Positions 45,370-64,000 of a DNA stretch of 64,000 bases are shown piece after piece. The notes under the pieces were generated by a model. It saw only the letters and a list, made by a program, of their open reading frames with translations, ran no database searches and was not told where the DNA came from. The first letter of the stretch is position 1; the number at the start of each line of letters is the position of its first letter. The stretch is from assembly GCA_043826355.1 (NCBI GenBank), contig JBDRQI010000004.1, positions 46,195 to 110,194 of the forward strand. Reading direction: 5' to 3'. Made by a program: the position numbers and the translations under genes. Source of the stretch: Candidatus Omnitrophota bacterium (GTDB lineage: Bacteria > Ratteibacteria > UBA8468 > MWAK01).

Positions 45370-45383
45370 TATTTTATATAATA

Positions 45384-45459: not shown

Positions 45460-45463
45460 ATTT

Positions 45464-46434: not shown

Positions 46435-46979
46435 TTTTTTATTCCGACCATACTGAAACTGATGGTTCCTGTTTCTTCACTTATCTGTTCAAATTTAATT
46501 TCATTCAATCCCTGTCTAAAATTTTCATTTCCGTTTAATTTTTCCAAAAAGACAGACAGGGGAACCATCGTTTGGTTTCCGGACAACCCCTCTCCTTCCA
46601 GGGAGATAATGTTCCCTTCAAAATTTATCTTGTTGAGATGGAAATGGCTGGGTATGGCATCAGAGAGTACAACCAATTTCGGCGTCAGGACCAGGCGTTG
46701 TTCTTGGAAGAGAACGGTTTTTTTTAATTCTTCCTGCCAGTATTTCTCCTTATCGGTGGGAGAGAACGCCTCTCTTTGTTCTTTCGTCAGGGACAAACCC
46801 TGTTTTTCTATTCGTTTGGTATATTCGGTAATAATGGTTTTATTAGTCGAGCGAACGATACTCAAAATTGCCAGGGAGAAGAACAGGATGGGCAGAAAAA
46901 TACCGATAAGGAAAAAAAGACGCTCTCTTTTTTCAATTGGGGCAGTGTATCTTTCTTTGATTAAATTAATCTTAACCAT
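46431..46979 (-). CDS. pilN: PilN-like protein
   Basis: KINLI start, TM, LSDAIP; synteny. Confidence 0.8.
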   Translation of the reverse strand: MVKINLIKERYTAPIEKRERLFFLIGIFLPILFFSLAILSIVRSTNKTIITEYTKRIEKQGLSLTKEQREAFSPTDKEKYWQEELKKTVLFQEQRLVLTPKLVVLSDAIPSHFHLNKINFEGNIISLEGEGLSGNQTMVPLSVFLEKLNGNENFRQGLNEIKFEQISEETGTISFSMVGIKK

Positions 46980-46996
46980 ACATTTTTGTCAATAAA

Positions 46997-47082
46997 TGTA
47001 TGGGAGGGGCTGCGTCCCCTCCCGCCAGAGGCGGACTTGATGAAACTCAGCCCGCGGGCGGGGATGTAACCCCGCCCCTACA
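46997..47082. repeat. GTAG-type REP-like element
   Basis: Near copy of 45384-45459. Confidence 0.8.
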
Positions 47083-47095
47083 CAAAACTGCAAAT

Positions 47096-48076: not shown

Positions 48077-48148
48077 TGTTTTAAAGTTTACACCATACAA
48101 TATATTGATGTCAAGAAAAACCTTTTTTACTTTTCGGCTCAAAATCAA

Positions 48149-49522: not shown

Positions 49523-49523
49523 A

Positions 49524-50024
49524 TTATCCTCCCCCTGCGTTTCTCAGGTAAACCAGAAAAATATTGCTTATTGGGTTAAAATTGTTCGGCACAAGCACCT
49601 CAACTTTGACCCTGACGGTTCGAGTATCAACATTTGTAAATTCAAGTAAACTGCAAGTGTTTATGATTGTTTCCGAGACGTTTGGAGGGTATTTATCATA
49701 GTAGGTCAGCCGGTTGCCGGAAGCAAGGTAGAATTCTTTTGACCAACCGGTATTGCTGGCAATAATGGCTGTTCCCGACACTCCCAGCTCCCTTACTGCT
49801 CCGTTACGAACAGCATAAACAGTATCGGCGTTTGCTTCCTCGAGAATCCCTTTTATTTTGTAACTGGCGACATCAAGGTCTCTTTGCGAAGCCACTATCT
49901 CCTTGCCTGTTTTCCAATCCTTGAATGCGGCAACAATCAGGGTTTCGATGCCAAAGAGCGCTATTGCGCTCAGGATAATGGCAATTATTACCTCAACCAA
50001 CGTAAAACCTTTTTTCGCAGACAT
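49524..50024 (-). CDS. Minor pilin (PilW-like)
   Basis: KKG|FTLVE prepilin site. Confidence 0.85.
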   Translation of the reverse strand: MSAKKGFTLVEVIIAIILSAIALFGIETLIVAAFKDWKTGKEIVASQRDLDVASYKIKGILEEANADTVYAVRNGAVRELGVSGTAIIASNTGWSKEFYLASGNRLTYYDKYPPNVSETIINTCSLLEFTNVDTRTVRVKVEVLVPNNFNPISNIFLVYLRNAGGG

Positions 50025-50039
50025 ATAAAATATTTGTTA

Positions 50040-50414
50040 TTATTTGGGTGAAATATACGTTGTTAGAGAAACGGGAAAACTTCCCGGATTCCAGCCCATC
50101 TCCACCGTTACCTGTTTATAATCGGGACCGGCGCCTATATCTGTAATTGTTGTCTTTCTCGTAAAAATTTTTCCGGAAATATTCAGATTGTTTTCAATTG
50201 CGGGGCTGAGGAGCAGTTCCATATCGGAGTAATTCATGCTCTTTAACTGCTCTATCTTGTAAACAGCGCCCCAGGTCGCCAGGCGTTGACGGTTAGCGTA
50301 AGAAAGGTTATTGCGATTGAGGGAAAAAAAGGCTATGCCGCCGAGCAGGGATATAATTAGTATGATTGTGGCAATAATTACTTCCGCTAACGTAAAACCG
50401 GCCTTTTTGTGCAT
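50040..50414 (-). CDS. Minor pilin (PilV-like)
   Basis: KAG|FTLAE; KQVTVEMGW; start set to ATG 50414. Confidence 0.85.
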   Translation of the reverse strand: MHKKAGFTLAEVIIATIILIISLLGGIAFFSLNRNNLSYANRQRLATWGAVYKIEQLKSMNYSDMELLLSPAIENNLNISGKIFTRKTTITDIGAGPDYKQVTVEMGWNPGSFPVSLTTYISPK

Positions 50415-50493
50415 ACTTAACGTAGCGGTGGCATTTATGCCAAGTTTTGTTCGTGCGATAAATCGCACCGCTACAGGGTGCGCAAATACGATT

Positions 50494-50537
50494 ACGGCAC
50501 CAGAAGAGAGGCGTTACCGACTCTCTTCTGGTGCCGT
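50494..50537 (-). terminator. 17-bp perfect stem-loop just downstream of the major pilin gene
   Basis: acggcaccagaagagag-N10-ctctcttctggtgccgt; no clear U tract. Confidence 0.6.
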
Positions 50538-50543
50538 GTCCAC

Positions 50544-50981
50544 TTAGAATTCACTAATCACTCCATCCTGAGTTACTGTAGCAACAACAGTCGTTGTTGG
50601 CCAATACTTGAGCACTTTTGCCGTACCCGGCGCACCGTTGGTTGCGAGACTTGTGCAGGTGGCGGTGAATGTTGTCGTTCCGTTACCGGTAACGGTATAG
50701 GAATCGATGTCGAAGTAGTGAGCGTCTGTTGCGTCAATTCCCAGGACACTCTCGACTTGAGCGGAAGTAAGGTTGTTTGAGTAACCACCGTATTCTGACC
50801 GGTAGATTCTTTCTGCGGAACGGATTGCGCCCAAGGTTGCCACCGCTTCGGTCCGGATGGCTCTTTTGACGTTTGCCGTATAGAAAGGTATCGAGGCGGC
50901 AGCCAAGATTGCCACGATTATTACTACGACCATTAATTCCACCATCGTGAAACCATTTTTGTTCTTAAGTAAATTCTTCAT
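50544..50981 (-). CDS. Probable major type IV pilin
   Basis: KNG|FTMVELMVVVIIVAILAA; strong RBS; candidate own promoter TTGAAT-N18-TATAAT at 51017-51046. Confidence 0.85.
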   Translation of the reverse strand: MKNLLKNKNGFTMVELMVVVIIVAILAAASIPFYTANVKRAIRTEAVATLGAIRSAERIYRSEYGGYSNNLTSAQVESVLGIDATDAHYFDIDSYTVTGNGTTTFTATCTSLATNGAPGTAKVLKYWPTTTVVATVTQDGVISEF

Positions 50982-51050
50982 AGAATTTTTTCACCCCCTT
51001 TTTGATGTTGCTTATTATTATATCTTAAATTTGCAACAAAATTCAAGTAT

Positions 51051-52271
51051 TTACATATTTACTGACCCGGACAACTTGAATATCGGCAGATACAGGGCGA
51101 TGACCACAAACCCGACGATTACGCCCAGCCCAAGGAGCATTGCCGGTTCCAGCGTGGTAGTGAGCATCTTGGTTCTAGCCATGGCTTCGTCCCGGTAGAA
51201 TCGGTTGATCCGGCTGAACATCTCGCTCAGTTTACCGGTTTCTTCTCCCACGGAAACCATCCGTGTCAATAGCGGGGGGAAGATGGGTTCTTTGCGCATT
51301 TCCGCCGAGATGGTGCCGCCGCTTTCTACACCGTTTTTTATTTTATCGGAAGCATCTTCAATCAGGCTGTTTCCGGAGACCGTGCCGACTATCCCCAGGC
51401 ATTTTATCACCGGAACTCCGCTGGAAATAAGCGCCGCGAAAGTCTGGCAAAAATAGGAAAGAGCAATCAAACGGAAGGTTTCACCAAGCACCGGCAGGCG
51501 TAATTTACGCCGGTCGAAAAACCTCCGGCCGTTCCGGGTCCTATTGTAACGGTAGCAGGTAACCGCAACAGCGAAAAAAATTAAAACAAGCCAAATAAAG
51601 TTTTTTATGATAATATTGCTGGTATCCATGACGAACCTGGTTAGAGGAGGAAGCACTACATCAAAACTGGCAAACAATTCTGTGAATTTGGGTATCAGGA
51701 ATAGAACGATAAAACAGAGGGCAAAAATAAAAAAGCCCAGTATGAAAGCAGGGTAAGTGGTGGCTGTTTTTACCTCGCGCTGAAGGGCTATTTTATCTTC
51801 CAGGTGGACGGAGATTTGCTCTAAAACCGCGGAAAGGTTTCCGCCTTCTTCGCCGGATTTAATCATGGCGGTGATGATGCTGGGGAAGAGCCGGGGGTGT
51901 TTAGCCAGGGTTTGGGAAAAGGAGTTTCCTTTTTCAATGTCGGTTCTCATGCCGTTCACAATTCCGGAAAAATTGACGTTTTTTATCTGGGACGCCAATT
52001 CTCTCAACGAATCGGTGATAGATACGCCGGCGCCGACCATGGTCGCCAACTGCCGGAAAAAGAAAGAAATTTCAGACAGTCTAATCTTTCCGGTTCCGGC
52101 CATTTTCATCTGTATCCGTATTTTTGGTTTGATTTCCCGAGCAGAGAGGACAACCATCCGCTGTTTTTTCAGGGCGGCGACCAGCGTGTTGAGAGAGGCG
52201 GAATCCAGGGTTCCCTTAACCTTTTCTCCGTTTTCATTCCGGGCAAAATAGGTAAATTTAGCCATAATCAA
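51051..52271 (-). CDS. pilC: PilC/GspF inner-membrane platform protein
   Basis: FRQLATMV, GEEGGNL, YPAF, VGEETGKL, LEP, ALYLPIF. Confidence 0.93.
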   Translation of the reverse strand: MIMAKFTYFARNENGEKVKGTLDSASLNTLVAALKKQRMVVLSAREIKPKIRIQMKMAGTGKIRLSEISFFFRQLATMVGAGVSITDSLRELASQIKNVNFSGIVNGMRTDIEKGNSFSQTLAKHPRLFPSIITAMIKSGEEGGNLSAVLEQISVHLEDKIALQREVKTATTYPAFILGFFIFALCFIVLFLIPKFTELFASFDVVLPPLTRFVMDTSNIIIKNFIWLVLIFFAVAVTCYRYNRTRNGRRFFDRRKLRLPVLGETFRLIALSYFCQTFAALISSGVPVIKCLGIVGTVSGNSLIEDASDKIKNGVESGGTISAEMRKEPIFPPLLTRMVSVGEETGKLSEMFSRINRFYRDEAMARTKMLTTTLEPAMLLGLGVIVGFVVIALYLPIFKLSGSVNM

Positions 52272-52289
52272 TAAGGATTATAATTCATT

Positions 52290-52467
52290 TGTCATTCTGA
52301 GCGCAAGCGAAGAATCTGACATACTTTGTCATCCTGAACGCACTCTGTGTCATTCTGAGTGAAACGAAGAATCCCGTTTTAACTACGAGATCCTTCGCGA
52401 CTTCGGCTCAGGATGACAAAGCATTGTTTTACTCAGGATGACAGAGTGTTTAACGGCTCAGGATAAC
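52290..52467. repeat. TGTCATCCTGA palindrome cluster
   Basis: Near copy of cluster at 43093-43213. Confidence 0.85.
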
Positions 52468-52484
52468 ACCATAAAAACATTAAA

Positions 52485-53549
52485 CTACGTTTTTCTGCTA
52501 ATTAATTCTTCTAATTCTTTTGAATTAGAACTGGCGTTGATGGCTGTCTCCAAACTTATCTCTTTCTTCCGGTAGAGGCGGAAAAGGGAGCGGTTCATCG
52601 TTTCCATCCCAAGGTCCAAACCCATCTGCAGGTGGGAGATAATCTCCTGCGGTTTGTTTTCCCTAATTAGATTCCTGATAGCCGGAGTTACTACCATGAT
52701 TTCGGTTGCCAGCACCCTCCCTTTTCCGCCCGTTCTGGGGAGAAGTTGCTGGGCGATTACGCCGTAGAGTGTGAGGGAGAGTTGAACTCTTGTTTGTTGC
52801 TGCTGGTTGGTCGGGAAGATATCAATGATGCGGTTGATGGATTCTATTGCCTCCCCGCAATGTAGCGTGGAGAGAACCAGGTGGCCGGTTTCAGCCAGTT
52901 TTAAAGCGGAAGAGACCGTTTCCAGGTCCCGCATTTCACCGACCAGGACTACGTCCGGGTCTTCGCGGAGCGTGTGTTTCAGAGCTTCGTTGAAAGAAAG
53001 GGTATCTCCGCCTAACTCCCGCTGGTTGACGATTGACTTTTTATGTTTGAACAGATATTCAATCGGGTCCTCAACCGTAATGATATGGCATCTTCGGTTT
53101 TCGTTGATTTGGTTAACCATGGCGGCCAGGGTGGTCGATTTTCCGCTGCCGGTAGCCCCGGTTGCCAGGATGAAACCCCGGGAGAGGGAACAGAATTTTT
53201 GCATTATCGGGACCGGCAGGCCCAACTGCTGGAAGGTTGGGGTTTCGGTAAGGATGAGACGGAAGGCGCCGCTGACTGAACTTCTCTGAAAGTAGTAATT
53301 GACCCGGAACCGTCCTATTCCGTGAATTCCATAGGAAAAGTCAAGTTCCTTAAAATTTTCAAACCGGGTCTTCTGCTCTTCGGTCAGGATGGAGTAGCAC
53401 AGGTCTTGGCAGGATTCCGCAGTCAGGGCAGGGGTTTCCATAAAGACCAACTCTCCGTCGATGCGCAGGCAGGGAGGAATGTTGGGAGAAAGGTGCAGGT
53501 CGGAGGCATTTCTTTCGGCCGCCAACGTCAGGAGTTCATTGATTTTCAT
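52485..53549 (-). CDS. pilT: Pilus retraction ATPase PilT
   Basis: ASDLHL, GATGSGKSTT, EDPIE, LREDPD, GEMRD, AIRNLIRE. Confidence 0.95.
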   Translation of the reverse strand: MKINELLTLAAERNASDLHLSPNIPPCLRIDGELVFMETPALTAESCQDLCYSILTEEQKTRFENFKELDFSYGIHGIGRFRVNYYFQRSSVSGAFRLILTETPTFQQLGLPVPIMQKFCSLSRGFILATGATGSGKSTTLAAMVNQINENRRCHIITVEDPIEYLFKHKKSIVNQRELGGDTLSFNEALKHTLREDPDVVLVGEMRDLETVSSALKLAETGHLVLSTLHCGEAIESINRIIDIFPTNQQQQTRVQLSLTLYGVIAQQLLPRTGGKGRVLATEIMVVTPAIRNLIRENKPQEIISHLQMGLDLGMETMNRSLFRLYRKKEISLETAINASSNSKELEELISRKT

Positions 53550-55198
53550 TATGGGTTTTCAACGATTCCAAGGACTTCTTCCAGGGAGGTGATGCCTTCA
53601 GCCGTTTTACTCAGGGCGACATCAAAGAGACTCTTCATGCCTTCTTTTTTCGCTTCTTCCTGCCAGGTCCCGTAACTTGTTTTTTGAGTAAACAGTTCTT
53701 TCAGTCGGCGAGTTATTTCCAGGACTTCAAAAATTCCGATTCTTCCCCAGTACCCGGTTTCATTGCAAAAGCGGCACCCCTTGGCCTGGTAAATTTCGGT
53801 TTTAGCCGGCAGGAGATTTGAATAAGGCGCAGGTTCTTTACATTCCGGGCAGAGTTTCCGGATGAGGCGCTGGGCGACGACCAGATGCAGGGAAGGAGCC
53901 AATAGGTATGGCGCCACGCCCATGTCAATTAGCCGGGTAATGGTGGAGACGCTGTCATTGGTATGGATAGTGGAAAAAACCAGGTGACCGGTGAGCGCGG
54001 CCCGGATTGCGATTTCGGCGGTTTCAAAATCCCGTATTTCGCCGACCATGATAATATTGGGGTCCTGGCGAAGGACATGGCGCAGGTAGTTGGCGAAAGT
54101 CAGACCGATTTCCGGCCTGACCTGGGCCTGGTTGATTCCTTCCAGCCGGTATTCCACCGGGTCTTCCAGAGTGACGATGTTTACTCTGGGGTTGTTGAGG
54201 TGGGAAAGGGCGGCGTAAAGGGTGGTTGTTTTTCCGGAGCCGGTAGGCCCGGTAATCAGAATAATGCCGTAAGGTTTTTTGAGGGCGGACTGGAATTTTT
54301 CTCTTTGTTCCTTTTCCATTCCTAATTCCTGAAGGTTCGGGACCAGGCTGGAACGGTCCAGGACGCGAATGACAACCTTTTCGCCAAAGACCGTGGGAAA
54401 GGTGGAGATGCGCAGGTCAAGAATTTTTTTTCCGATTTTAACTTCGCACCGGCCGTCCTGTGGGCGTCTTCTTTCGGCAATGTCAAGATTAGACAGAATC
54501 TTTATCCGACTGACGATTCCCGGGAACATCGTAACCGGGGGCGGGGATGCGGAGTTAAGTATTCCGTCGATTCGAAACCGCAGCGAACAGGTCTTTTCCA
54601 TCGGTTCCAGGTGAATGTCGGAAGCCCTTTTTTCGATGGCCTGCACTAAAAGAAGGTTGACGAATTTTATCACCGGCGGGTCATCGGCCTGGAAGGTAAT
54701 TTCAGATTTATCCGCTTCCTGGTCCAATCCTACGCTGGTCAGTTCCAGCGTCGGCGCTTCCATTTCGGTAAATCCGTAATAATTCTTTTCGATGGCTGCA
54801 AGAACTTCCTCGGATTTTCCCCTGACCGCTTTTATTTCGTAACCGGTAACGCTTTGAAGTTTATCAATAGCGGTAATGTCAAATGGGTCAGCCATGGCCA
54901 CTTTTAATATTTTTTCTTTCTGTTCGATGGCTATGGCCAAAAACCGCTTGGCCAGTCTTTCCGGGATTTTTTTGATTAATGCTGGCGGGATGCTAAGCTG
55001 GGACAGGGAAACGATTTCGATTTCATTTTGCAGGGCGAGGGCTTCGGTCATTTTTTCTTTGGTCAGAAGTCCCTTTAAAATCAGAATAGTGCCCAAGAGT
55101 TTTCCGGTCCGCTGCTGTTCCTCAACGGCCAGGTCTAAATCTTTTTGTTTGATCAGGTTTTGCCTGACCAAGATGTCTCCCAACTTTTCTTTATTCAT
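53549..55198 (-). CDS. pilB: Pilus extension ATPase PilB/GspE with MshEN-like N-terminus
   Basis: KLGDILV../LLGTIL.. repeats, ASDIH, GPTGSGKTTT, RQDPN, CPEC..GCRFC. Confidence 0.95.
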   Translation of the reverse strand: MNKEKLGDILVRQNLIKQKDLDLAVEEQQRTGKLLGTILILKGLLTKEKMTEALALQNEIEIVSLSQLSIPPALIKKIPERLAKRFLAIAIEQKEKILKVAMADPFDITAIDKLQSVTGYEIKAVRGKSEEVLAAIEKNYYGFTEMEAPTLELTSVGLDQEADKSEITFQADDPPVIKFVNLLLVQAIEKRASDIHLEPMEKTCSLRFRIDGILNSASPPPVTMFPGIVSRIKILSNLDIAERRRPQDGRCEVKIGKKILDLRISTFPTVFGEKVVIRVLDRSSLVPNLQELGMEKEQREKFQSALKKPYGIILITGPTGSGKTTTLYAALSHLNNPRVNIVTLEDPVEYRLEGINQAQVRPEIGLTFANYLRHVLRQDPNIIMVGEIRDFETAEIAIRAALTGHLVFSTIHTNDSVSTITRLIDMGVAPYLLAPSLHLVVAQRLIRKLCPECKEPAPYSNLLPAKTEIYQAKGCRFCNETGYWGRIGIFEVLEITRRLKELFTQKTSYGTWQEEAKKEGMKSLFDVALSKTAEGITSLEEVLGIVENP

Positions 55199-55233: not shown

Positions 55234-55806
55234 TCAAATTTTACCGTTCTCCACTTCCTCCAGGAATATCTTCACCAGAAACTGGTCAAGGGTATTGTCA
55301 AGACCTTTCAGGATATTGGCTGATTCCGTGATGCTCGAAGCGGATTTATAAGGCCGGCCGGAAATCAGAGCCGAATAGGTGTCGGCGACAGCCAATATTT
55401 TTGAACCCAGCGGTATCTCGCCGTTTTTCCGGCCTTCCGGATAACCGCTTCCGTCCATCCGTTCGTGGTGGTAGAGGACCAGGGGCAATACGTCTTTCAG
55501 GGAAGTTATCTGGCCGATGATTTTGGCGCCTTCCTGCGGATGTGTTTTTATCTTTTCGTATTCTTCCGGAGAAAGCCGGCCTGGTTTTTGGAGTATGGCG
55601 TCGGGGATAGCGATCTTCCCGGTGTCGTGCAGAAATCCGGCGAAACGAATCGTTTCCTGCTCTTTTTCGGTGAGTTTCAATTTTTTGGCTATTGACTGGC
55701 CGTAATCCATGACCAGCAGGGAATGAGACATTGTGTAGTGGTCTTTGCCGTCTATCACCATCAGCAAAGCATTGATTATCTCGAGAATGTCGTGTTTTTT
55801 AGCCAT
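55234..55806 (-). CDS. Stand-alone HD-GYP phosphodiesterase
   Basis: KDHYT..HS, LHDTGK, HHERMDGSGYP, AVAD. Confidence 0.92.
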   Translation of the reverse strand: MAKKHDILEIINALLMVIDGKDHYTMSHSLLVMDYGQSIAKKLKLTEKEQETIRFAGFLHDTGKIAIPDAILQKPGRLSPEEYEKIKTHPQEGAKIIGQITSLKDVLPLVLYHHERMDGSGYPEGRKNGEIPLGSKILAVADTYSALISGRPYKSASSITESANILKGLDNTLDQFLVKIFLEEVENGKI

Positions 55807-56158
55807 TTATTTTTTCGGAGACCAGCCGGCGGATTTCAAAGATGTCAAACGGTTTGTTCAGGCAAATAATTGCGCCCAGCCCTTGCGCTTGTTGAGTCAT
55901 TTCCGGCGACCCGTAGCCGGTAAGGATAATCACTTTTGCCTTCGGGTTTATTGCTTTAATCTTTTGCAGTACTTCAATCCCGTCCATTCCCGGCATCTTC
56001 AAGTCAAGGATTGTCAGGTCAGGGTGGTCCTTTTTGCTGATTTGAATCCCTTCTTCTCCGTTGCCGGCAATCAATACATCGTAGTTGTCTTTGAACAGAA
56101 TCCGCAGGGATTCGCGCGGGCCGATTTCGTCATCGATAACCAGGATTTTGTTTTTCAT
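55799..56158 (-). CDS. Single-domain response regulator
   Basis: VIDDE, ILDLKMP, ILTG, NKPF; 8-bp overlap with HD-GYP. Confidence 0.93.
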   Translation of the reverse strand: MKNKILVIDDEIGPRESLRILFKDNYDVLIAGNGEEGIQISKKDHPDLTILDLKMPGMDGIEVLQKIKAINPKAKVIILTGYGSPEMTQQAQGLGAIICLNKPFDIFEIRRLVSEKING

Positions 56159-56186
56159 TTCGCCTCCGTAAAACGTTTTTGTGTGA

Positions 56187-56335
56187 TGTCATTCTGAGCC
56201 GCTTTTGCGAAGAATCTGCCGCCCTTTGTCATTCTTGAGCGTCAGCGAAGAATCCAACGTAATTTGTCATCCTTGAGCGTTAGCGAAGGATCCAATCTTT
56301 AAAAAGCGAGATCCTTCGGTACCCTCAGGATGACA
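56187..56335. repeat. TGTCATTCTGA palindrome cluster
   Basis: Three left-type and one right-type motif copies. Confidence 0.8.
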
Positions 56336-56367
56336 ATCCATTTTTTCGTGCTTCCGTGGTATTCTTT

Positions 56368-57588
56368 TTAGAAATTATACTGGATATTTAGAGTTGTAAT
56401 CAGATTAAAAGTTTTGTAGGTGCCGTCAAAAGGTCCGCTTTCGTCGATTTTCCGGTCTTCCGGAAAGGATAATTCCTGGGAGAGCGCCAGCGCAAAGTTT
56501 TTTTTCTCCCACCCAAAACCGAGGCAAAAGACGTGGGCGTTGGCGTCCGGCAGAGACGGGTCAAAGGTTCGGTCCGGTATTGAGGTGGGAAGATATACGT
56601 AACCTGCCCAGAGTTTCCAGTTTACGTCCGGACGGAATTCTATCCCAATTCTGGGGCTTAAAGTATCTTCCCAGTCCTTGGCGATCTCCTGACGGGATGG
56701 AGCGGGTAGCGCAAGGTCGATTGTCAGATTTTTCAGCGAGGACCATTCTATCCACTCCAGGTCAGTTTCTATCTTCCATCTTTTATTCGGCCGGTAGGCA
56801 TAACCAATTCCCGCCATGTTCGGGAAGTTCATTTTGACGGAAGACGGAGTTCTGAAATCCGGGCCGCCCAGGAACAGGGGTATGCCGGTCATCGAAAAGT
56901 GTCCGGTATGCTTGATGGAATAACCGCTGCGAAAGGTGCCGCCGATGCTGTGCTTTTCCGAAGGTTTATAGAGAAGACCAAGGTTGTATCCGTATCCTTC
57001 GCCTTCAACCGCCATCTTCTGGCTGCCGTCCGGGGAAGAAAAGAAACTGTAATCGTTCTGCGCTTTCAGGGTAAGGCTGGAGTTATAATAATTTAAACCC
57101 AGGCCAAGGGAAAATTCAGGGTTTACCCGATAGGCGATTGTCGGATTTACGTCAATAAATTTCATTTCCGAAAAAGTAGCGTTGTATCGGAACAAACCAT
57201 CTTTAGACCATTCGGTTGATTGTCCGAAAGGCGTGGTGATTCCCAGTCCAAACCGCCAGTTGGTCGTTTTCAAGTCGGTGGCAAAATAAAGGTTTGGCAG
57301 GATATGTAACGATTCCTTCATATTTTCCGTTTGTCCGCCCGGAGCGTAATATTTAGTGGAAGGATAGATAAAAGCCGGGGTGAACAGAACCGAGGCGCCG
57401 GATAACTGGGTTAATCCGGCCGGGTTATGGGTGATGGCGGTGGCGTCATCTGCCTGGGCCGTGAATGCGCCGGCCTGGGCCGAGGCAGCCGTTCCCTGGG
57501 GCGGGTTCTGAAATCCGGCCCCTTCCGCATGTGTCAGTACAGATAAGAACATAAACCCTAAAATTACCGGATAAAATTTTTGTGCCAT
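56368..57588 (-). CDS. FadL/TodX/OmpP1-family outer-membrane transporter for hydrophobic compounds
   Basis: AGF mature start, QADDATAITHNPAGL hatch motif, PFG, terminal QYNF; RBS ggagg before ATG 57588. Confidence 0.92.
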   Translation of the reverse strand: MAQKFYPVILGFMFLSVLTHAEGAGFQNPPQGTAASAQAGAFTAQADDATAITHNPAGLTQLSGASVLFTPAFIYPSTKYYAPGGQTENMKESLHILPNLYFATDLKTTNWRFGLGITTPFGQSTEWSKDGLFRYNATFSEMKFIDVNPTIAYRVNPEFSLGLGLNYYNSSLTLKAQNDYSFFSSPDGSQKMAVEGEGYGYNLGLLYKPSEKHSIGGTFRSGYSIKHTGHFSMTGIPLFLGGPDFRTPSSVKMNFPNMAGIGYAYRPNKRWKIETDLEWIEWSSLKNLTIDLALPAPSRQEIAKDWEDTLSPRIGIEFRPDVNWKLWAGYVYLPTSIPDRTFDPSLPDANAHVFCLGFGWEKKNFALALSQELSFPEDRKIDESGPFDGTYKTFNLITTLNIQYNF

Positions 57589-57677
57589 ATTTCCTCCAAA
57601 TTTTTCTTTGCGTGTCGTTCCCGCATGTTTTAGGCGGGAATCAGCACCGCTTGGAATTGCGGGCATACCCTACAAGG

Positions 57678-57693
57678 TGCAATTTTTTTGCCA
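57678..57693 (-). promoter_or_regulatory. Candidate sigma54 -24/-12 promoter for the fadL-like gene
   Basis: Minus strand TGGCAAAAAAATTGCA, exact GG-N10-GC spacing, 90 bp upstream of start. Confidence 0.6.
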
Positions 57694-57778
57694 TAGATTT
57701 TCTGTTCTATTTGTACAGTAGGACAGGCTTCCCGCCTTCGCTAAAGCTACGGCGGGCAAAGCCCGCCTGTCATTATGA

Positions 57779-57955
57779 TGTCATTCTGAGCCGATCTTAC
57801 GAAGAATCCCGCAGTTAGCGGTTGAGATCCTTCGCTGCGCTCAGGATGACAGCGTATTAATGGCTCAGGATGACAGTGTTGCGCTCAGGATGACAGTGTT
57901 GCGCTCAGGATGACAGTGTTACGCTCAGGATGACAGTGTTACGCTCAGGATGACA
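57779..57955. repeat. Palindrome cluster ending in a 20-bp tandem array
   Basis: gctcaggatgaca at 57839, 57863, 57883, 57903, 57923, 57943. Confidence 0.92.
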
Positions 57956-57997
57956 CAAGGCGCAAAGCTTTGCACCGGTATTGTATCGGATTCCAGA

Positions 57998-58087
57998 TGT
58001 ACAAATTTGACATTGCTTAAAATATAAGGTAACATTTTTGTACAGGCTGTAATGCGTATCTAAACAAAATTGTACAAAAACTTAACA
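57998..58087 (+). promoter_or_regulatory. sigma70-like promoter with overlapping TGTACA boxes
   Basis: TTGACA 58007-N17-TAACAT 58030; TGTACA at 57998, 58039, 58071. Confidence 0.5.
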
Positions 58088-58096
58088 TGAATTGAT

Positions 58097-59722
58097 ATGA
58101 AAATTTTACTTATTTCGGTGGCCGGATGTCCCAGAACCCCTTCCGATTTCATACCGGACAATGGTCTGGCTTTATTGGCTTCCTTGTTTATTTCTCAAGG
58201 CCACCAGGTGAAAATTCTTGATTACAATACTACGGAAACCCTGAAACGTTCTTTTCCGGAAAATATCAGCACCCGCCTGAAAAAAATCGCCGGACCTATT
58301 TTTCAGGGCAGTAAGCCCGGACTTTTGACACTGCTGCGCCTTTCTTTTTTAGAGAAAAAGTTGCGGGCACACCAAATCAGGGTTTTTTACGAAATCGGCT
58401 CTGAGATTGCCGATCTGACGGAAAGAGAGAAAGTTGATTTCGTGGGGTTAAAACTTTGGAACGGGGATGGGTTTACCGCTTCGCTGATTATCGCCGATGT
58501 TTTAAAAAAGAGAAATCCGAAGATACTGGTTTTTGGCGGAGGTCCCCAGGTGGATTTTTTCCGGGAGAATATTTACCGGGCAACTTCTGATTTTGATGCC
58601 CTGGTTTACGGGGAAGGCGAGCACGCCATCCTGGGTTTAGTTGATTTCGTTCAAGGCAAGAAAGGTTTGCGGGAGATTCCCAACCTGATTTTTCGTGATT
58701 CCGGCCGGATAGTAACCACGCCCCAAAAATGGACGGAAGACCTGAACCAATTGCCTTTTGCCAATTACGACCCGTCTGTTTATCCGGCTATGAAGGATAA
58801 CGGACGTCTGAAGTTTATCGTGCTTGACGAAAGCCGGGGGTGTTCTTTTTCCTGTTATTTTTGCATTCATCCCGTGAAGAGCGGCCGGCCGAGAGTCAAG
58901 AGCGTTGAGCGGATAATTGCGGAAATAACGCATTATCAGGAGAAATACGGCGTTTCTCTCTTCCGTTACGGCGGTTCCAATACGCCTCCGAAATTATTGG
59001 AGGAGGTGGCCCGGTCCATAATTCAGAACAATCTTAAGATTAAATATACCGTTCTGACCGATTTACGCCAGGAGGGGATTGATTTTTCGCTGCTTAAAGA
59101 TTCCGGTTGTTTCGCTGTCTTTTTCGGAGTGGAATCCACCGACCCGGGGATTTTGGCGAAAGCGATAAACAAGAAGGCCTTTCCGGAGCGGATGGAAAAT
59201 ATCCTGAAGGAAGCGAAAACGGCCGGAATTTTTATTGTCGTCAGTCTGATTGTGCCGGCTCCCGGCGAAACCGAAGAGACGAAAAAGAAGACCCTGGAGT
59301 TTTTGTTGAGGACCAGGCCGGATTCAGTCCTGGTTCAATTTCCCGGTATTCTTCCCGGAACCGAATGGTTTAAAAATCCGGAAAAATATGGTTTTTCAAT
59401 TAAAAACAAGAAGGCCTATCCCGATAAGGTAATGAACTATAAGATGCGTCTTTTTTTCCCGCCCCGCTTCTGGGACCCGCTTCCTTATCGGGTAGATGGT
59501 AAAAAATTCCGTTCTTTTGTCCGGGAAACGGAATTATTTTTGAAAAAATTGGAATCGGTTGGGCTGACAACCGGAATAGCCGATGATATTGCTTTAATGT
59601 CAAAATACAGCCATCTTTCTCCGAAGGAATTCCGCGACCTGAATCGCGGTTACTTTTTTACCGGGGATGCCCTTAACCTGCAGGAATTAATCGTAAAAAT
59701 CAATGGCGGAAAGAATTACTGA
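58097..59722 (+). CDS. B12-binding radical SAM protein
   Basis: N-terminal cobalamin-binding-like domain (GLALLAS, FGGGPQ, GEGE); SRGCSFSCYFC; FGVES; PGET. Confidence 0.9.
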   Translation: MKILLISVAGCPRTPSDFIPDNGLALLASLFISQGHQVKILDYNTTETLKRSFPENISTRLKKIAGPIFQGSKPGLLTLLRLSFLEKKLRAHQIRVFYEIGSEIADLTEREKVDFVGLKLWNGDGFTASLIIADVLKKRNPKILVFGGGPQVDFFRENIYRATSDFDALVYGEGEHAILGLVDFVQGKKGLREIPNLIFRDSGRIVTTPQKWTEDLNQLPFANYDPSVYPAMKDNGRLKFIVLDESRGCSFSCYFCIHPVKSGRPRVKSVERIIAEITHYQEKYGVSLFRYGGSNTPPKLLEEVARSIIQNNLKIKYTVLTDLRQEGIDFSLLKDSGCFAVFFGVESTDPGILAKAINKKAFPERMENILKEAKTAGIFIVVSLIVPAPGETEETKKKTLEFLLRTRPDSVLVQFPGILPGTEWFKNPEKYGFSIKNKKAYPDKVMNYKMRLFFPPRFWDPLPYRVDGKKFRSFVRETELFLKKLESVGLTTGIADDIALMSKYSHLSPKEFRDLNRGYFFTGDALNLQELIVKINGGKNY

Positions 59723-60944
59723 AGAGAAGAAACGGGTGGTCATTACCGGGATAGGAGTTATTTCTCCCAACGGTATCGGTAAAGAGGTGTTCTGGGAAGC
59801 GCTGAGAACCGGTAAGTCCGGCATCAAAAAAATCACTTCTTTCGACGCTTCAAGTTTTCCCTGCCAGATAGCCGGGGAGGTGACTGGCCGTCTTCCGCTT
59901 GATTTTATGGAGAAAAAAGCGGTCAGGAGAATGGCCCGGTCCAGCCAGTTCGCAGTAGCTGCAACTCAGATGGCTATGGTCGATGCCGGTTTTAATTCAA
60001 TAATTCCCGAGCCGATTCGCTCTTCCGTAACTTTGGGGATAAGCAGCAGCGCGATCGATGTTATCGAGAAAGATTTTGCAATTTTTTTGAAGAAAGGACA
60101 TTTGGCGATTAGTCCCTACGGAATCCTGGCTGTTTCTCCTCACGCCGCAGTTAGCGAAATTGTTAAATTGCTAAACCATCCCGGTTCCGGCGAAACGCTT
60201 GGCAATGATTGCACAGCTGGTCTCGACGCTATTGGACTTACCTACCTGAGAATCAGGTCCGGGGAAATTTCACTCGGCATCTGCGGCGGCGTTGATGCGC
60301 CGATCAGCCCTTTGCTGTGGGGATGGTTTTGTCAGGGAGGTCTGGTGCCTCCGGTAGCGGATAACCCGGAGGGTGCCAGCCGGCCTTTTGATTTGAAGCG
60401 AACGGTGGGCATAATTTCGGAAGGAGCCGCAGTTTTTATTCTGGAAGAGATGGCGCAGGCGCTGTACCGGCGCGCCGCTATTTACGGTGAAATCATTGGT
60501 TTCGGAAATAACAGCGAGAATTGCCTGGATGAAGGATTGAGGAAATCCATGGAAAAGGCAATTCTTCAGGCGCTTATTTCTTTTTCCGAGATAGATTATA
60601 TTTCCGCACACGGTCCTTCTCATTGCCTGATTGATAAGATAGAGACGGATGCCATCAAAAAACTTTTCGGTCAAGAGGCCTACCGGATACCGGTCAGTTC
60701 CATCAAATCAATGATTGGCAATCCTTTGGCGGCCGGCGGACCGCTCCAGGTGGCCGCTCTTCCGCTCAGTTTTCAGAAAGGCCTTATTCCGCCGACCATA
60801 AACTACCGGTATCCGGACCCGGCCTGCGACCTTGATTATATTCCGAACAAACCGCGTTATAATGAAGTTAAGGTGGCTTTGGTTAATTCTCATGGGATTG
60901 GAGGGGGTAATTCCTCTCTGCTGATAAAAAAATGTCGTATTTGA
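59703..60944 (+). CDS. FabF-like beta-ketoacyl synthase with Cys-His-Asn triad
   Basis: RVVITGIG, DCTAG, SRPFD, SAHG, SSIKSMIGN, GIGGGN. Confidence 0.88.
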   Translation: MAERITEEKKRVVITGIGVISPNGIGKEVFWEALRTGKSGIKKITSFDASSFPCQIAGEVTGRLPLDFMEKKAVRRMARSSQFAVAATQMAMVDAGFNSIIPEPIRSSVTLGISSSAIDVIEKDFAIFLKKGHLAISPYGILAVSPHAAVSEIVKLLNHPGSGETLGNDCTAGLDAIGLTYLRIRSGEISLGICGGVDAPISPLLWGWFCQGGLVPPVADNPEGASRPFDLKRTVGIISEGAAVFILEEMAQALYRRAAIYGEIIGFGNNSENCLDEGLRKSMEKAILQALISFSEIDYISAHGPSHCLIDKIETDAIKKLFGQEAYRIPVSSIKSMIGNPLAAGGPLQVAALPLSFQKGLIPPTINYRYPDPACDLDYIPNKPRYNEVKVALVNSHGIGGGNSSLLIKKCRI

Positions 60945-63067
60945 TGAAATTGTTTTTCCTGGTAAACATACTGGCCGCGGTCACTTCCACCGGAATCGGC
61001 CTGTTTGTTTTTTTAAGGAAAAAAAATACCAAGAACCGACTTTATTTAATATTTAATTTAAACTTAGCCGGCTGGGCAATAGCGATGTTGCTTGGTCTCC
61101 AACAGGCCGGCATAAGTATCGAAAAATTCCCCTTCTGGGTTAGGGTGGCAACCGCAATCGCCGTATTCATACCCGCGGTCTTCTATCATTTTGTCGCAAC
61201 TTTCAGGGAAGATGTTCATGAGAAGAAGGCAAGATTTCTGTTTTATTATTTAATCAGCGGTCTCCTTGTCTGCCTGGCTTTTACCCCGTCTTTTATCAAG
61301 AGTTACTTTTTTCATGTGCCGGAACAGAAACTTCGTTTTGCTTCCCCGCTGGTCGTTTACGGAAATTCTTTCGTTTTTGTCTCCATTTATGTTTTAGGTT
61401 TATTGATAATCTCCCTGGTCAGTCTTTTGCGGACACGAAAAAGGAACAGCGGTTTTAAGAGGTTGGAAATAGATTATGTTTTTGGCACGGTTGCGCTCGG
61501 AACGGCTTTTGTGTGCTTAACTTCGCTTGTTTCGCCCTATATCGGAATTGTCCGGTTTACTCCGTTAGCGCCGTTTTCAGCCGTGCTCATGAGCGGCATT
61601 ATCGCATACGGCATTGCCCGCCATCGGATTCTGGAAGTTTCTTTTGTTTTAAAGCGGACAACGATGTATGCTATTCTGACCGTTTTTCTGGTTTTAATTT
61701 ACGGCGTTGTCGTTTTCATGCTGAATTTACTATTTCAAGGGAGGGTTGTACCCGTCAACCTGTTTATTCCCAACATGATTGCCGCCATTGCCATTGCTTT
61801 TATTTTTTCTCCCGTTAAAGAAAAGATCCAGGTCTATCTGGACAAGTTTTTTTTCCGGAGACGGCATCAGCCGGAAAAGGTGTTGAGCGAACTGAGCGAA
61901 ATCCTGAGTTCCCGCGAGGATATTTCACGTTTGTTGCGGCTATCCCTGGAAAGGATTGCGCCGGCTTTAAAAGTAAAAAACGTCCTGATAGCCCTGCGCG
62001 GAAACAAAGAGGCGGATAATTTTTTCATCGGCGCCATGGTGGGACACGGATTCAGAAAAAATCAACTTATTCTGGATTTAAATAAAGAAAGCGCTTTTGT
62101 AAAGGAATTAGCCCGGGGAGATGTTTTGATTCGCGATGAACTGGAGCGAATGTCTTTTGATTCGGGCCGGGACCATGCGGTTGCTTTGCTGAAAGCCATG
62201 CCGGCGGAAATGTCTGTTCCGCTCATGCTCAAGAATGAACTGGTCGGTTTTTTAATTATGTCCCAGAAGGAAAACCGAAAAATCTTCTCCAAGCATGATT
62301 TGGAATTTCTGCGTACCATTTCCGGCCAGCTGGCCATGGTTATCAATAACGCGGAACTTTTTTCCCAGTTGCAGCGGGCGGAGCGGCTGGCGGCCGCCGG
62401 GATAATCGCCGCCGGGATGGCCCATGAAATCCGGAACCCGCTGGTTTCCATCAAGACCTTCGTCCAGTTGCTTCCGGAAAAGTTCAATGATCCGGAGTTT
62501 CGGCAGACGTTTACGCAGATTGCTTCCCAGGAAGTTGACCGGATAAACCGCCTCCTGGAAGACCTTTTGAATTTTGCCCGGCCGGCACAGATGCAAAAAA
62601 AGAAAACCAATCTTTCCGAAACAATTGAAAAGAGTCTTTTCATGCTTACCAATGAATTGGCCGCCCGGGAGATTACCGTGGAGAAGGAATATCCCGCGGA
62701 AGATATTTTCGTTGAAGGCGACGAAGCCCAGCTTCAGCGGGTATTTTCCAACTTGTTTCTCAACAGCATTCAGGCGATGGAGAACGGGGGCAGGTTGACG
62801 GTTACAGCCAGCACTTCTCCTTACAAGCAGCGGTTTTTTATCAAGATAATTGATACGGGCAAGGGTGTTCCTTCAGAAAACCTTGCCCGGATATTTGACC
62901 CATTTTTCAGTACCCGGACCGGCGGAACCGGGCTGGGGCTTGCCATTGCCCATAATATCGTGAAGGAACACGGCGGTGAAATTGAGGTGCAGAGCGTTCC
63001 GAACAACGGAACCGCCTTTACGCTGGAATTTCCCGCCGCGTATCTGTCTGCCCTGGAGGAAAAATGA
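60932..63067 (+). CDS. Multi-TM (7TM-type) GAF-domain sensor histidine kinase
   Basis: ~9 TM N-terminus, GAF (SVPLMLKNELVG..NNAELF), AHEIRNPL, NLFLNS, DTGKG, FDPFFST, GTGLGL. Confidence 0.93.
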   Translation: MSYLMKLFFLVNILAAVTSTGIGLFVFLRKKNTKNRLYLIFNLNLAGWAIAMLLGLQQAGISIEKFPFWVRVATAIAVFIPAVFYHFVATFREDVHEKKARFLFYYLISGLLVCLAFTPSFIKSYFFHVPEQKLRFASPLVVYGNSFVFVSIYVLGLLIISLVSLLRTRKRNSGFKRLEIDYVFGTVALGTAFVCLTSLVSPYIGIVRFTPLAPFSAVLMSGIIAYGIARHRILEVSFVLKRTTMYAILTVFLVLIYGVVVFMLNLLFQGRVVPVNLFIPNMIAAIAIAFIFSPVKEKIQVYLDKFFFRRRHQPEKVLSELSEILSSREDISRLLRLSLERIAPALKVKNVLIALRGNKEADNFFIGAMVGHGFRKNQLILDLNKESAFVKELARGDVLIRDELERMSFDSGRDHAVALLKAMPAEMSVPLMLKNELVGFLIMSQKENRKIFSKHDLEFLRTISGQLAMVINNAELFSQLQRAERLAAAGIIAAGMAHEIRNPLVSIKTFVQLLPEKFNDPEFRQTFTQIASQEVDRINRLLEDLLNFARPAQMQKKKTNLSETIEKSLFMLTNELAAREITVEKEYPAEDIFVEGDEAQLQRVFSNLFLNSIQAMENGGRLTVTASTSPYKQRFFIKIIDTGKGVPSENLARIFDPFFSTRTGGTGLGLAIAHNIVKEHGGEIEVQSVPNNGTAFTLEFPAAYLSALEEK

Positions 63068-64000
63068 TTCTATCCGCAATCATTTCCGATAGTCCGGCGC
63101 TCAAAGAAGAACTATCACTCCTTTTCAAGGATTCTCTCACCTTTTTGGATATCGGCAAAGGTCTGTTTTTTGGATCGGAATTACACCAGCCGTTCAGCAT
63201 TCTTTTTCTGGATGTCCCCCTGAAGGAAAACGACCCGTTTGCGATTTTACGTCAGGTCCGCAAGTATCAGCCGGGGTTGCCGGTGGTGGTTCTTCTGCCC
63301 GGTTCCGCTTCTTTGGCGGGAACCGAGGCCTTGCAGCAGGGCGCCTATGATATGCTGAATAAGCCGATTGACCGGGAAAGGCTTAAAATTATCGTTTCCC
63401 ACGCCTTGGAAAAAGAATTCCTGGCCCGGGAAAAGGAGTATCTGGAAAAACAGTTTTTAAAGATGGTTGAAAGACGCCCGGCGCCGGTTATTTTGGAACA
63501 GGGCCGGGATTTTTACGCCGGGGCGCTGCGTCGCATTTCGGAAACATTGCTGAATATTTTTAAGGAAAATGATTTCGCGGAATTGCTGGTAAAAACCATC
63601 GGAGAGGTGTTTGGCCTTTCCCGTATCGCCCTGTTTTTGCTGGAGAAAGGAGAGTACCGGGTTCGCGCTTCTTTCGGTTGGGATAATTCCTGGGCCGGAC
63701 AGGTCTCCTTTTCCGTTTCCGATGGTTTGGCTGCCTGGCTGGAAAAGGAACAGAAGATTCTCCGTTACGAAAAAATTGTGGACCTTGACCCTGCAAAATC
63801 GGGAAGCCGGTTGCAGAACGACCTGGAACTGGCCGGCGCCAAAATCTGCGTTCCGGTCTTTTTTCGCGGAAAGGTGAGTGGTTTCCTCTCCCTGGGAAAT
63901 AAAATTTCCGGACGAGATTTCAGCGAGGAAGACATAGACTTTTTTTCATTTCTGGCGAATTACTTGGGACTGGTCATTGATAACGCCTCCCTTTACCACC
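63064..64000 (+). CDS. Atypical receiver plus GAF signalling protein (partial, runs off window)
   Basis: ATGA overlap; ILFLDVP..GAYDMLNKP receiver; GAF ICVPV..GFLSLGNKISG..IDNASLYH. Not in ORF track. Confidence 0.85.
   Translation, partial: MILSAIISDSPALKEELSLLFKDSLTFLDIGKGLFFGSELHQPFSILFLDVPLKENDPFAILRQVRKYQPGLPVVVLLPGSASLAGTEALQQGAYDMLNKPIDRERLKIIVSHALEKEFLAREKEYLEKQFLKMVERRPAPVILEQGRDFYAGALRRISETLLNIFKENDFAELLVKTIGEVFGLSRIALFLLEKGEYRVRASFGWDNSWAGQVSFSVSDGLAAWLEKEQKILRYEKIVDLDPAKSGSRLQNDLELAGAKICVPVFFRGKVSGFLSLGNKISGRDFSEEDIDFFSFLANYLGLVIDNASLYH

Follow-up and report, generated by a model that had tools for sequence, protein, structure and literature searches.

The 64,000-nucleotide (nt) stretch of DNA analysed here (the window; contig C4, positions 46195-110194) belongs to G000, the 1.87 Mb genome (38 contigs, 86% complete) of an uncultured groundwater bacterium from a phylum whose members bear the NCBI submitters' labels Ratteibacteria or Omnitrophica. 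The right end of the window holds seven genes in two divergent arms, among them genes for a cobalamin (B12)-dependent radical S-adenosylmethionine (SAM) enzyme, a FabF-like ketosynthase, a sensor kinase with a seven-transmembrane (7TM) domain and a FadL-type outer-membrane channel. We found the core of this cluster conserved as a module across the phylum, with a sigma-54-type promoter in front of FadL that co-varies with the transcriptional activator of the module, and we propose that the module may make and sense a lipid. An initial annotation of the same DNA had assigned the seven genes and suggested a synthase-transporter-receptor circuit controlling type IV pili. Its gene assignments proved correct: in the list of open reading frames (ORFs) and the Pfam scan all seven genes carry the claimed domains at the claimed coordinates. 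These genes and the promoter are as follows.

55234-55806, minus strand: HD-GYP protein, 190 amino acids, stand-alone domain (PF13487, 136.7 bits)
55799-56158, minus strand: receiver (REC) protein, single domain, 119 amino acids (PF00072, 90.4 bits)
56368-57666 (ORF; likely gene 56368-57588), minus strand: FadL/TodX-family outer-membrane channel (PF03349, 199.8 bits)
57678-57693, minus strand: sigma-54-type promoter TGGCAA-N5-TTGCA, about 90 nt 5' of the FadL start codon
58097-59722, plus strand: B12 (class B) radical SAM enzyme, 541 amino acids (PF02310, 50.2 bits; PF04055, 72.8 bits)
59703-60944, plus strand: FabF-like ketosynthase paralogue (alignment to B. subtilis FabF, 4ls6)
60932-63067, plus strand: 7TM-GAF-HisKA-HATPase sensor kinase (Pfam)
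63064-64000 (window end), plus strand: REC-GAF, the first 312 residues of a 661-amino-acid kinase (Pfam)

The genes of the right arm form an operon with successive overlaps of 20, 13 and 4 bases, and in the left arm the receiver and HD-GYP genes overlap by 8 nt. The likely start of FadL is the ATG at 57588, which lies behind GGAGG and opens a signal peptide. DNA past the window end was covered by locus L003 (contig C4, 104000-123999). The last gene of the window encodes there a complete 661-amino-acid REC-GAF-PAS-HisKA-HATPase kinase, followed with a 4-nt overlap by a sigma-54 activator gene and then by a gene for a GIY-YIG nuclease domain (114 amino acids; L003 8722-9066, plus strand), which is missing from this place in the loci of relatives. 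Encoded on the opposite strand are a 380-amino-acid sigma-54-like protein, a CHASE2-GAF-HD-GYP protein, a pseudopilin and a GGDEF protein. The initial annotation had recommended inspecting this downstream DNA for an acyl carrier protein (ACP), an HD-GYP protein or a sigma-54 activator; the activator and the HD-GYP protein are present, and an ACP gene is not.

The distribution of the module was surveyed in 65 genomes of the phylum (0.9-2.7 Mb), counting as positive a radical SAM orthologue at E ≤ 1e-100 and a special ketosynthase at no less than 46% identity. The radical SAM orthologue was detected in 40 genomes, plus two contig-end fragments, the special ketosynthase in 40, plus three fragments, and the N-terminal 7TM domain of the kinase in 44, nearly always as a single copy. 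Ketosynthase and 7TM domain are both present in all 42 genomes positive for the radical SAM enzyme; the two further 7TM-positive genomes have contig-edge pieces only, and 21 of the 65 genomes are devoid of all three alike. Of the 31 genomes with a completeness of 90% or more, 24 have the 7TM domain and 7 lack it, so that the module is accessory and not an essential part of membrane synthesis. Within the window's own genus it is missing from three of the four other genomes. The FadL family follows the module closely: it occurs in 37 of the 65 genomes, usually as a single copy and beside the radical SAM gene where contigs allow, and the 21 genomes without the module contribute no more than one fragment. 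FadL is missing from some genomes that have the module (e.g. G045, 93% complete).

Neighbourhood conservation, which the initial annotation had proposed as a check on its reading, was strong. The core was recovered in 20 of 20 relatives' loci from five families, three of which are truncated by a contig end within the radical SAM gene or shortly behind it. It consists invariably of the radical SAM enzyme, the ketosynthase, the 7TM-GAF kinase and the REC-GAF-PAS kinase, and is usually followed by the sigma-54 activator, a fused REC-HD-GYP protein and mreBCD. On the other side lie the divergent FadL gene, a REC-histidine kinase and then a full-length rpoN. Locus conservation and phyletic pattern together rule out a chance juxtaposition of the genes; judged by both, the genes are evidently a unit that is inherited and lost together across the phylum.

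FadL, the sole gene of its family in G000 (tblastn), scores well above the family cut-off (PF03349, 199.8 versus 29.7 bits) and far below that of the E. coli FadL equivalog (NF007988, 76.3 versus 585 bits). An element equivalent to its sigma-54-type promoter, TGGCA(C/T)-N5-TTGC(A/T), occupies the same place in 14 relatives' loci, and the pattern TGG-N9-10-TGC(A/T) is present on the FadL strand in 12 of 18 hand-cut spacers of relatives. A stricter promoter pattern, applied to whole loci (348,404 bases, 21 loci), matched 15 times, with about 2 matches expected at equal base frequencies, and 14 of the 15 matches fall in the spacer between the radical SAM and FadL genes, directed away from the radical SAM gene. 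We compared these sites with a census of sigma-54 activators (PF00158), which are encoded in 38 of the 65 genomes. The FadL promoter motif was found in 15 of 15 activator-bearing genomes with spacer sequence, the window included, and in none of five loci without activator (G063, G023, G028, G026 and, in addition, G034, whose activator is a fragment only, on another contig). As the five motif-free loci represent two genera and one other genome, they may reflect perhaps two or three independent losses. By these counts the sigma-54 promoter before FadL evidently co-varies with the activator, and FadL belongs to the module, of which it would seem to be the transcriptional output.

A sigma-54-controlled FadL would also be expected if the module served the uptake and remodelling of foreign fatty acids or hydrophobic nutrients, with the kinase sensing an external lipid, sigma-54 inducing FadL, and ketosynthase and radical SAM enzyme elongating or methylating the imports for the cell's own membranes. 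FadL proteins are, as a family, uptake channels, and the PF03349 match places the cluster protein among them; the small genomes of the phylum (0.9-2.7 Mb) would fit a dependence on outside lipids; and for the cores of the kinase and activator the closest similarity is to AtoS/AtoC, the controllers of short-chain fatty-acid use. The gene content speaks against such a pathway. No acyl-ACP synthetase or acyl-CoA ligase is encoded in the cluster, the only strong AMP-binding enzyme lying on another contig, and beta-oxidation looks absent, given that the 86%-complete genome has no crotonase-family match. Moreover, a full type II fatty acid synthesis (FAS II) set is encoded elsewhere in G000, and module-bearing genomes such as G045 do without FadL. 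We consider this explanation improbable.

The sensor kinase has a PrsK-like architecture of HisKA_7TM membrane domain, GAF, HisKA and HATPase. It matches the PrsK model TIGR02916 over its full length at 154.8 bits (cut-off 300), and the sigma-54 activator matches the PrsR model TIGR02915 at 379 bits (cut-off 502.6). The domains of the activator (PF00072, 102.4 bits; PF00158, 229.1 bits; PF02954, the Fis-type helix-turn-helix (HTH), 38 bits) are those of the NtrC class; as its score against the LuxO equivalog NF041946 is far under the cut-off (327.5 versus 800 bits), it shares that class with LuxO and is not an orthologue. G000 contains only one strong PF00158 match (232 bits; the next reach 34.8 and 29.9 bits) and only one sigma-54-like gene, which lies in the same cluster as this sole true activator. 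The whole sigma-54 system of G000 thus belongs to the module. The sigma-54-like protein itself (L003 9045-10187, minus strand, 380 amino acids) is recognised by Pfam and NCBIfam in its DNA-binding domain only and aligns to the full RpoN of a relative over that domain only; its N-terminus is region-I-like and rich in Leu and Gln. A short form of this kind also occurs in part of the metagenome loci described below (type B). A model of the 7TM domain (pLDDT 81) gave as best PDB matches the bundles of class C G-protein-coupled receptors (TMq 0.45-0.50, 10-15% identity), a generic seven-helix likeness from which no conclusion was drawn.

These matches raise the question of whether the kinase and activator are simply an ordinary regulatory pair with unrelated enzymes as neighbours, either PilS/PilR, in which the kinase senses pilin and the sigma-54 activator serves pilin genes, or PrsK/PrsR, which regulate PEP-CTERM/exosortase systems. 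A multi-transmembrane kinase and an NtrC-type activator do adjoin pil genes in G000, and the PrsK model is matched over its full length, with a PrsR match of 379 bits. Both scores are nevertheless under the respective cut-offs (154.8 versus 300 and 379 versus 502.6), and no match to exosortase EpsH (PF09721) was found in the 86%-complete G000, on which grounds a PrsK/PrsR exosortase system was rejected. Pil adjacency is missing in the other four families, the only sigma-54-type motif of the contig near the pil genes is the one before FadL, and the enzymes co-occur strictly with the kinase. Such a pair is highly improbable, family-membership tests having already largely refuted it.

Over its whole length, the ketosynthase of the cluster aligns with B. 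subtilis FabF (4ls6, E 2.4e-82) and keeps the active-site Cys and the first His, with Asn at the position of FabF's second His. This position is Asn in 19 of 19 phylum orthologues and either Asn (13) or Gln (13) in all 26 metagenome ketosynthases adjoining a 7TM kinase, whereas the housekeeping FabF retains His. KAS III-type enzymes also have Asn at this place. Membership of the FabF/KAS II family (TIGR03150) was rejected on score (331.3 versus 493.75 bits) and on the triad, which is Cys-His-Asn and not Cys-His-His. The enzyme is not the housekeeping FabF either: a fabD-fabG-acpP-fabF set sits on contig C21, and the cluster ketosynthase is 41% identical to the FabF encoded there. The alignments set it apart as a clade of its own, one whose triad has changed.

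Among known systems, the closest to combining radical SAM enzymes with unusual FabF homologues is the ladderane cluster of anammox bacteria, for which the accessible text of the source describes radical SAM enzymes together with non-canonical FabF homologues, ACP and FabZ (bioRxiv 10.64898/2026.05.19.726425), and the ladderane heterodimer 9s5h is among the PDB matches of our ketosynthase. The same text states that replacing triad histidines would severely hinder activity of the ladderane FabF homologues. The two systems differ in composition, the module having neither ACP nor FabZ nor a second FabF, as well as in all family scores tested, and the part of the ladderane source available reports no kinases. 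According to that part, the ladderane 'mutant' FabF has lost its Cys, while the cluster ketosynthase retains Cys and first His.

The radical SAM enzyme carries the cluster motif CxxxCxxC at C249/C253/C256 and belongs to class B by domain scores (PF02310, 50.2 versus a cut-off of 32.1 bits; PF04055, 72.8 versus 29.5 bits) and by a matching fold. It reached the cut-off of no curated NCBIfam family, the best being the PhpK family (121 versus 600 bits), and the ladderane-type lipid B12 radical SAM family (TIGR04072) was rejected at 65.5 bits against a cut-off of 360. In a PDB comparison, an AlphaFold model built with 13 homologues as input (pLDDT 92.6) had TsrM, TokK, MgmA, OxsB, CysS and AprD4 as its nearest folds, that is, cobalamin-dependent radical SAM enzymes, mostly methylases. 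TokK and CysS match at TMq 0.55-0.58 and 16-18% sequence identity; by their entry titles, both have structures with pantetheine-linked substrates and so provide a precedent for B12 radical SAM chemistry on carrier-bound chains. Methylation is the predicted reaction of the cluster enzyme; since OxsB and AprD4 match as well, ring contraction, dehydration or other chemistry is possible. Another contig encodes two more B12 radical SAM paralogues, 9 kb apart, that share 27-30% identity with the cluster enzyme (C9:13637-14680 and C9:22936-23922).

Metagenome contigs were scanned with an alignment of 13 radical SAM sequences, which yielded 80 loci, and the 45 of at least 7 kb were mapped. These metagenome relatives bear taxonomic labels given by their submitters (Chlamydiota, Calescamantes, Aenigmarchaeota, Lokiarchaeia). 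In three gene orders the ketosynthase, radical SAM and 7TM kinase genes stay together. Type A, the order of the window, accounts for 14 of the 45 loci. Type B (12 loci, within L075-L094; e.g. L080 279-14082) opens with a sigma-54-like gene, an HTH-cupin gene, a sigma-54 activator, a small HTH-like ORF and a ketosynthase with the triad Cys-His-Gln, continues with three B12 radical SAM genes, among which the gene of an ICMT/PEMT-type membrane methyltransferase is interposed, and ends with a stand-alone HisKA_7TM protein, a 7TM-GAF kinase and a PilZ protein. The 'Lokiarchaeia' label on a type-B protein is doubtful because its neighbours are bacterial-type sigma-54 genes. Type C (3 loci) comprises a gene without assignment, the ketosynthase, the 7TM kinase and further kinases, convergent with the radical SAM gene. 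Of the remaining mapped loci, five pair the radical SAM gene with FeeM and 11 are of other or unassigned order; in L114, L121 and L123 ORF calling labelled no radical SAM gene, and these were left unassigned.

The promoter pattern matched 16 times in the 662,748 bases of the metagenome loci (about 3.8 expected). Six matches lie before FadL, one in an equivalent place, four before the type-B ketosynthase operon, one before the gene preceding PilZ and four elsewhere; in L080 the same promoter element, different in its last base, precedes the small ORF and the ketosynthase. From these positions, the most probable target of the activator is FadL in type A and, in type B, the very operon that encodes the enzymes and the kinase; a promoter ahead of the ketosynthase-radical SAM-kinase operon would make type B an autoregulatory loop. 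In one relative from the phylum survey, a further sigma-54-type motif lies inside the ketosynthase gene (L035 10672-10687, plus strand), 214 nt before the start of the 7TM kinase, and may be due to chance or be an internal promoter.

In five metagenome loci (L067, L086, L107, L109 and L125) the radical SAM gene adjoins a gene for a FeeM-type N-acyl amino acid synthase. FeeM-type synthases have a LuxI-like fold, and Pfam Autoind_synth also matches, weakly. One of the five loci, L086, has archaeal-type neighbours; it also carries genes for a tRNA-intron endonuclease and a family B DNA polymerase, which make the contig probably archaeal. The submitters' label Aenigmarchaeota is borne by a homologue that shares 72% identity with the L109 protein. 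Single among these loci is a sigma-54-type motif in L125 (5345-5360, plus strand), 153 nt 5' of the FeeM-type gene behind the radical SAM gene, which may be chance. In a midpoint-rooted FastTree phylogeny of 57 radical SAM ORFs longer than 500 amino acids (shorter or split ORFs excluded), the FeeM-linked members are scattered at several places among the ketosynthase-linked ones. This interspersion indicates that a single radical SAM family partners two kinds of enzyme, both predicted to handle acyl thioesters, and the pairing with LuxI/FeeM-like synthases would fit a role in acyl-derived secreted or signal lipids.

In the main competing explanation, the module makes a regulated surface or secreted lipid (a biosurfactant, an adhesion or an envelope lipid), the kinases sense another cue (membrane state, a c-di-GMP-related cue, or redox through GAF/PAS) and control the enzymes and FadL, and the product of the radical SAM enzyme and ketosynthase is an effector instead of a ligand. 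The presence of enzymes and kinases in one operon would be expected on this account too, the GAF and PAS domains offer alternative input sites, and in type B the enzyme genes lie behind the sigma-54 promoter and so are an output of the system. The radical SAM family pairs with FeeM-type synthases, whose products are, in the portion of the source available, surfactant-like lipids tied to exopolysaccharide systems (PMC7293339), and the ladderane cluster, as far as its accessible text goes, demonstrates that radical SAM enzymes and FabF homologues can make structural lipids (bioRxiv 10.64898/2026.05.19.726425). What an effector lipid leaves unexplained is that a 7TM domain of one family always accompanies the ketosynthase in three gene orders and is absent without it, and that a second, stand-alone copy of this domain lies inside the type-B enzyme operon. 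An essential envelope lipid, in particular, is unlikely with the module missing from 7 of the 31 genomes of at least 90% completeness. Overall, we judge an effector lipid to be rather unlikely, if clearly the strongest of the competing explanations.

The initial annotation had further described the circuit as wired to type IV pili, the left arm being co-oriented with the whole pil cluster. This cluster is located directly beyond the HD-GYP gene.

43286-55198, minus strand: type IV pilus cluster with secretin, LysM protein, PilN/PilM, beta-propeller, three prepilin-type genes, PilC, PilT and PilB (Pfam)

The orientation was confirmed, as pilB, pilT, pilC, the three prepilin-type genes, pilM, pilN and the secretin gene are on the same strand as the left arm. 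The HD-GYP gene ends 35 nt 5' of pilB, and no terminator-like site was found in the gaps. The translation of 55234-55806 contains both the HD and the GYP motif, in agreement with the HD-GYP family, and the protein is a predicted c-di-GMP phosphodiesterase. PilB (53549-55198, minus strand) begins with an MshEN domain, in which two Leu/Gly-rich stretches of 24 residues lie in tandem; these we take to resemble the c-di-GMP-binding motif of MshEN. With an HD-GYP gene directly 5' of a pilB of this kind, pilus activity is a likely local target, and a local c-di-GMP route to pilus control in this genus appears plausible. Among the 20 relatives' loci, however, only that of the congener G058 (locus L026) shares with G000 the adjacency of pilBTC to the module, and these two genomes are also the only ones with a split receiver and HD-GYP protein on the FadL side. 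In the remaining families, rpoN closes the FadL arm, mreBCD come after the operon and pil genes are not adjacent. The wiring to pili consequently holds for the two module-bearing genomes of the genus and fails for the other families. Between the prepilin-type genes and pilM, the pil cluster also encodes a lactonase-like seven-bladed beta-propeller protein (457 amino acids; 48149-49522, minus strand).

The literature, supplementary files aside, contains no description of this gene combination that we could find, in agreement with the initial annotation, which knew of no characterised system of such composition; in the literature on Ratteibacteria, none of the matches listed concerned this cluster by title or abstract start. 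The composition suggests a variant of a known lipid-signal or lipid-effector type with a membrane kinase and with sigma-54 and c-di-GMP outputs. In CqsA/CqsS/LuxO of Vibrio and LqsA/LqsS of Legionella, an alpha-hydroxyketone synthase is encoded beside a multi-transmembrane kinase that binds this lipid-like molecule in the membrane; output of the CqsS/LuxO type runs through a sigma-54-dependent response regulator, and PhcB/PhcS is another functional analogue. Unlike CqsA/CqsS/LuxO, the module has a radical SAM enzyme and a ketosynthase instead of a pyridoxal phosphate (PLP) enzyme, and neither a small-RNA layer nor LuxU.

In its working, the circuit would by analogy most resemble the Rpf/diffusible signal factor (DSF) system of Xanthomonas, which the accessible text of the source describes as comprising a fatty-acid signal, the membrane kinase RpfC and the REC-HD-GYP protein RpfG, with an effect on pilus-dependent motility (PMC3749722). 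Both systems have a receiver and HD-GYP output, split in the window and fused as REC-HD-GYP at the operon end in relatives. They differ in the synthase genes (B12 radical SAM enzyme and FabF-like ketosynthase, not an RpfF-type crotonase), in the kinase (HisKA_7TM-GAF input, no HPt domain) and in the added sigma-54 branch and FadL; the signal, moreover, is only proposed here. A DSF/RpfF system proper was rejected, as the crotonase family (PF00378) had no match among the cluster genes or elsewhere in the 86%-complete G000. With PrsK/PrsR, to which kinase and activator come nearest in architecture and in which an NtrC-type activator works with sigma-54 promoters before its targets and the stimulus of PrsK is called obscure in the text available (PMC1569441), the module shares a HisKA_7TM-type domain with kinase core, the NtrC-type activator and a sigma-54 promoter before the target. 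What sets the module apart is its target, the FadL gene, and the presence of a second kinase and of HD-GYP proteins. According to the part of the source at hand (PMC7293339, citing Craig 2011), PEP-CTERM systems have N-acyl amino acid synthase genes as neighbours, an adjacency that parallels the radical SAM-FeeM pairs; a PrsK-type 7TM kinase beside an acyl-lipid synthase may, by analogy, be a general theme.

Taking this evidence together, we propose the following chain from lipid synthesis through kinase sensing to sigma-54, FadL and c-di-GMP outputs. The radical SAM enzyme and the Cys-His-Asn ketosynthase would turn acyl chains of the housekeeping ACP pool into a modified, probably alkyl-branched, lipophilic molecule. 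This lipid would be perceived in the membrane by the PrsK-like 7TM-GAF kinase encoded directly behind the enzymes. Judging from their domain content, the 7TM kinase and the REC-GAF-PAS kinase would pass phosphate to the sole sigma-54 activator and to the receiver and HD-GYP proteins. Promoter position, conservation and co-variation argue that the activator and the neighbouring sigma-54 would then switch on the FadL promoter and with it the receiver and HD-GYP genes behind. FadL might carry the hydrophobic molecule across the outer membrane and so close a feedback loop, and the HD-GYP enzymes would lower c-di-GMP, with pilus activity as a likely local target in this genus only. That the kinase senses the lipid product is plausible; the chain as a whole we regard as quite possible, stopping short of calling it probable.

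Several observations weigh against this chain. The pilus link is local to one genus and is not part of the conserved module, so that of the circuit originally suggested the composition is real, conserved and coherently regulated and the connection to pili does not extend beyond the genus. There is no ACP, thioesterase or exporter gene in the cluster, and FadL channels are known for uptake, not export. The His-to-Asn/Gln change in the ketosynthase could weaken or alter condensation. The radical SAM operon of the window has no sigma-54 promoter and only a weak sigma-70-like match. Next to none of the sequence words of 55234-64000 occurs in three RNA runs. Over the whole of G000, TGGCA-type matches number 8 with about 7 expected, i.e. 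chance level, and a sigma-54 regulon derived from the pattern count was discarded for this reason. Autoregulated two-component operons with enzymes are common in which the enzyme product is not the ligand. Finally, the genomes of one phylum are related, and the counts of co-occurrence and co-variation therefore overstate the number of independent events.

Should the proposed chain be correct, a new synthase chemistry, that of a B12 radical SAM enzyme with a variant ketosynthase, would join the few known lipid-based bacterial signalling systems, and cell-to-cell or envelope signalling would be found in a small-genome, uncultured groundwater phylum of which, to our knowledge, almost nothing functional is known. 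The compactness of the module (two enzymes, one kinase, one activator, one sigma factor, one promoter) makes it testable by heterologous expression without culture. Even if the product is an effector lipid, the strict phyletic coupling stands as a comparative-genomic result, as does the commitment of a whole sigma-54 system to a single class of promoter. For the HisKA_7TM/PrsK sensor domain, the stimulus of which is called obscure in the text available (PMC1569441), the module would provide the first candidate source of a ligand.

A broader generalisation can be formulated. HisKA_7TM kinases, PrsK included, might be membrane receptors for long-chain acyl metabolites from adjacent synthases, and the module would then represent a new class of lipid autoinducer circuit, in which a branched acyl signal is the joint product of a cobalamin radical SAM enzyme and a Cys-His-Asn/Gln ketosynthase and crosses the outer membrane through a FadL channel induced by sigma-54, with sigma-54 transcription and HD-GYP/c-di-GMP as the outputs. 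This class would be spread over several uncultured lineages, with the radical SAM family also serving N-acyl amino acid synthases in archaeal-looking contigs. We offer this as a speculation that is doubtful in its full extent.

Three sigma-54-type sites in G000 are both intergenic and correctly oriented. Besides that of FadL, they are C5:18029 (plus strand), before a GAF-HD-GYP gene, and C30:19324 (plus strand), before the gene of a GAF-GAF histidine kinase. The latter two are leads only, and as further targets of the single activator they are possible. Two more features occupy the spacer between FadL and the radical SAM gene.

57836-57955, no strand: REP-like dispersed repeat, here as a tandem array (Tandem Repeats Finder)
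58007-58035, plus strand: sigma-70-like promoter match, 10 of 12 positions, 5' of the radical SAM gene (weak consensus match)

Sigma-70-like sites of this quality number 4 in the region, with 3.8 expected from shuffles. The array consists of 4.7 copies of a 20-bp unit. It was considered as a binding site for the activator and ruled out: its 13-base core recurs 55 times across the genome, as part of a dispersed repeat that is not specific to this locus. Related 'GTCATTCTGAGC' cores of the REP-like element occur 45 times in the genome.

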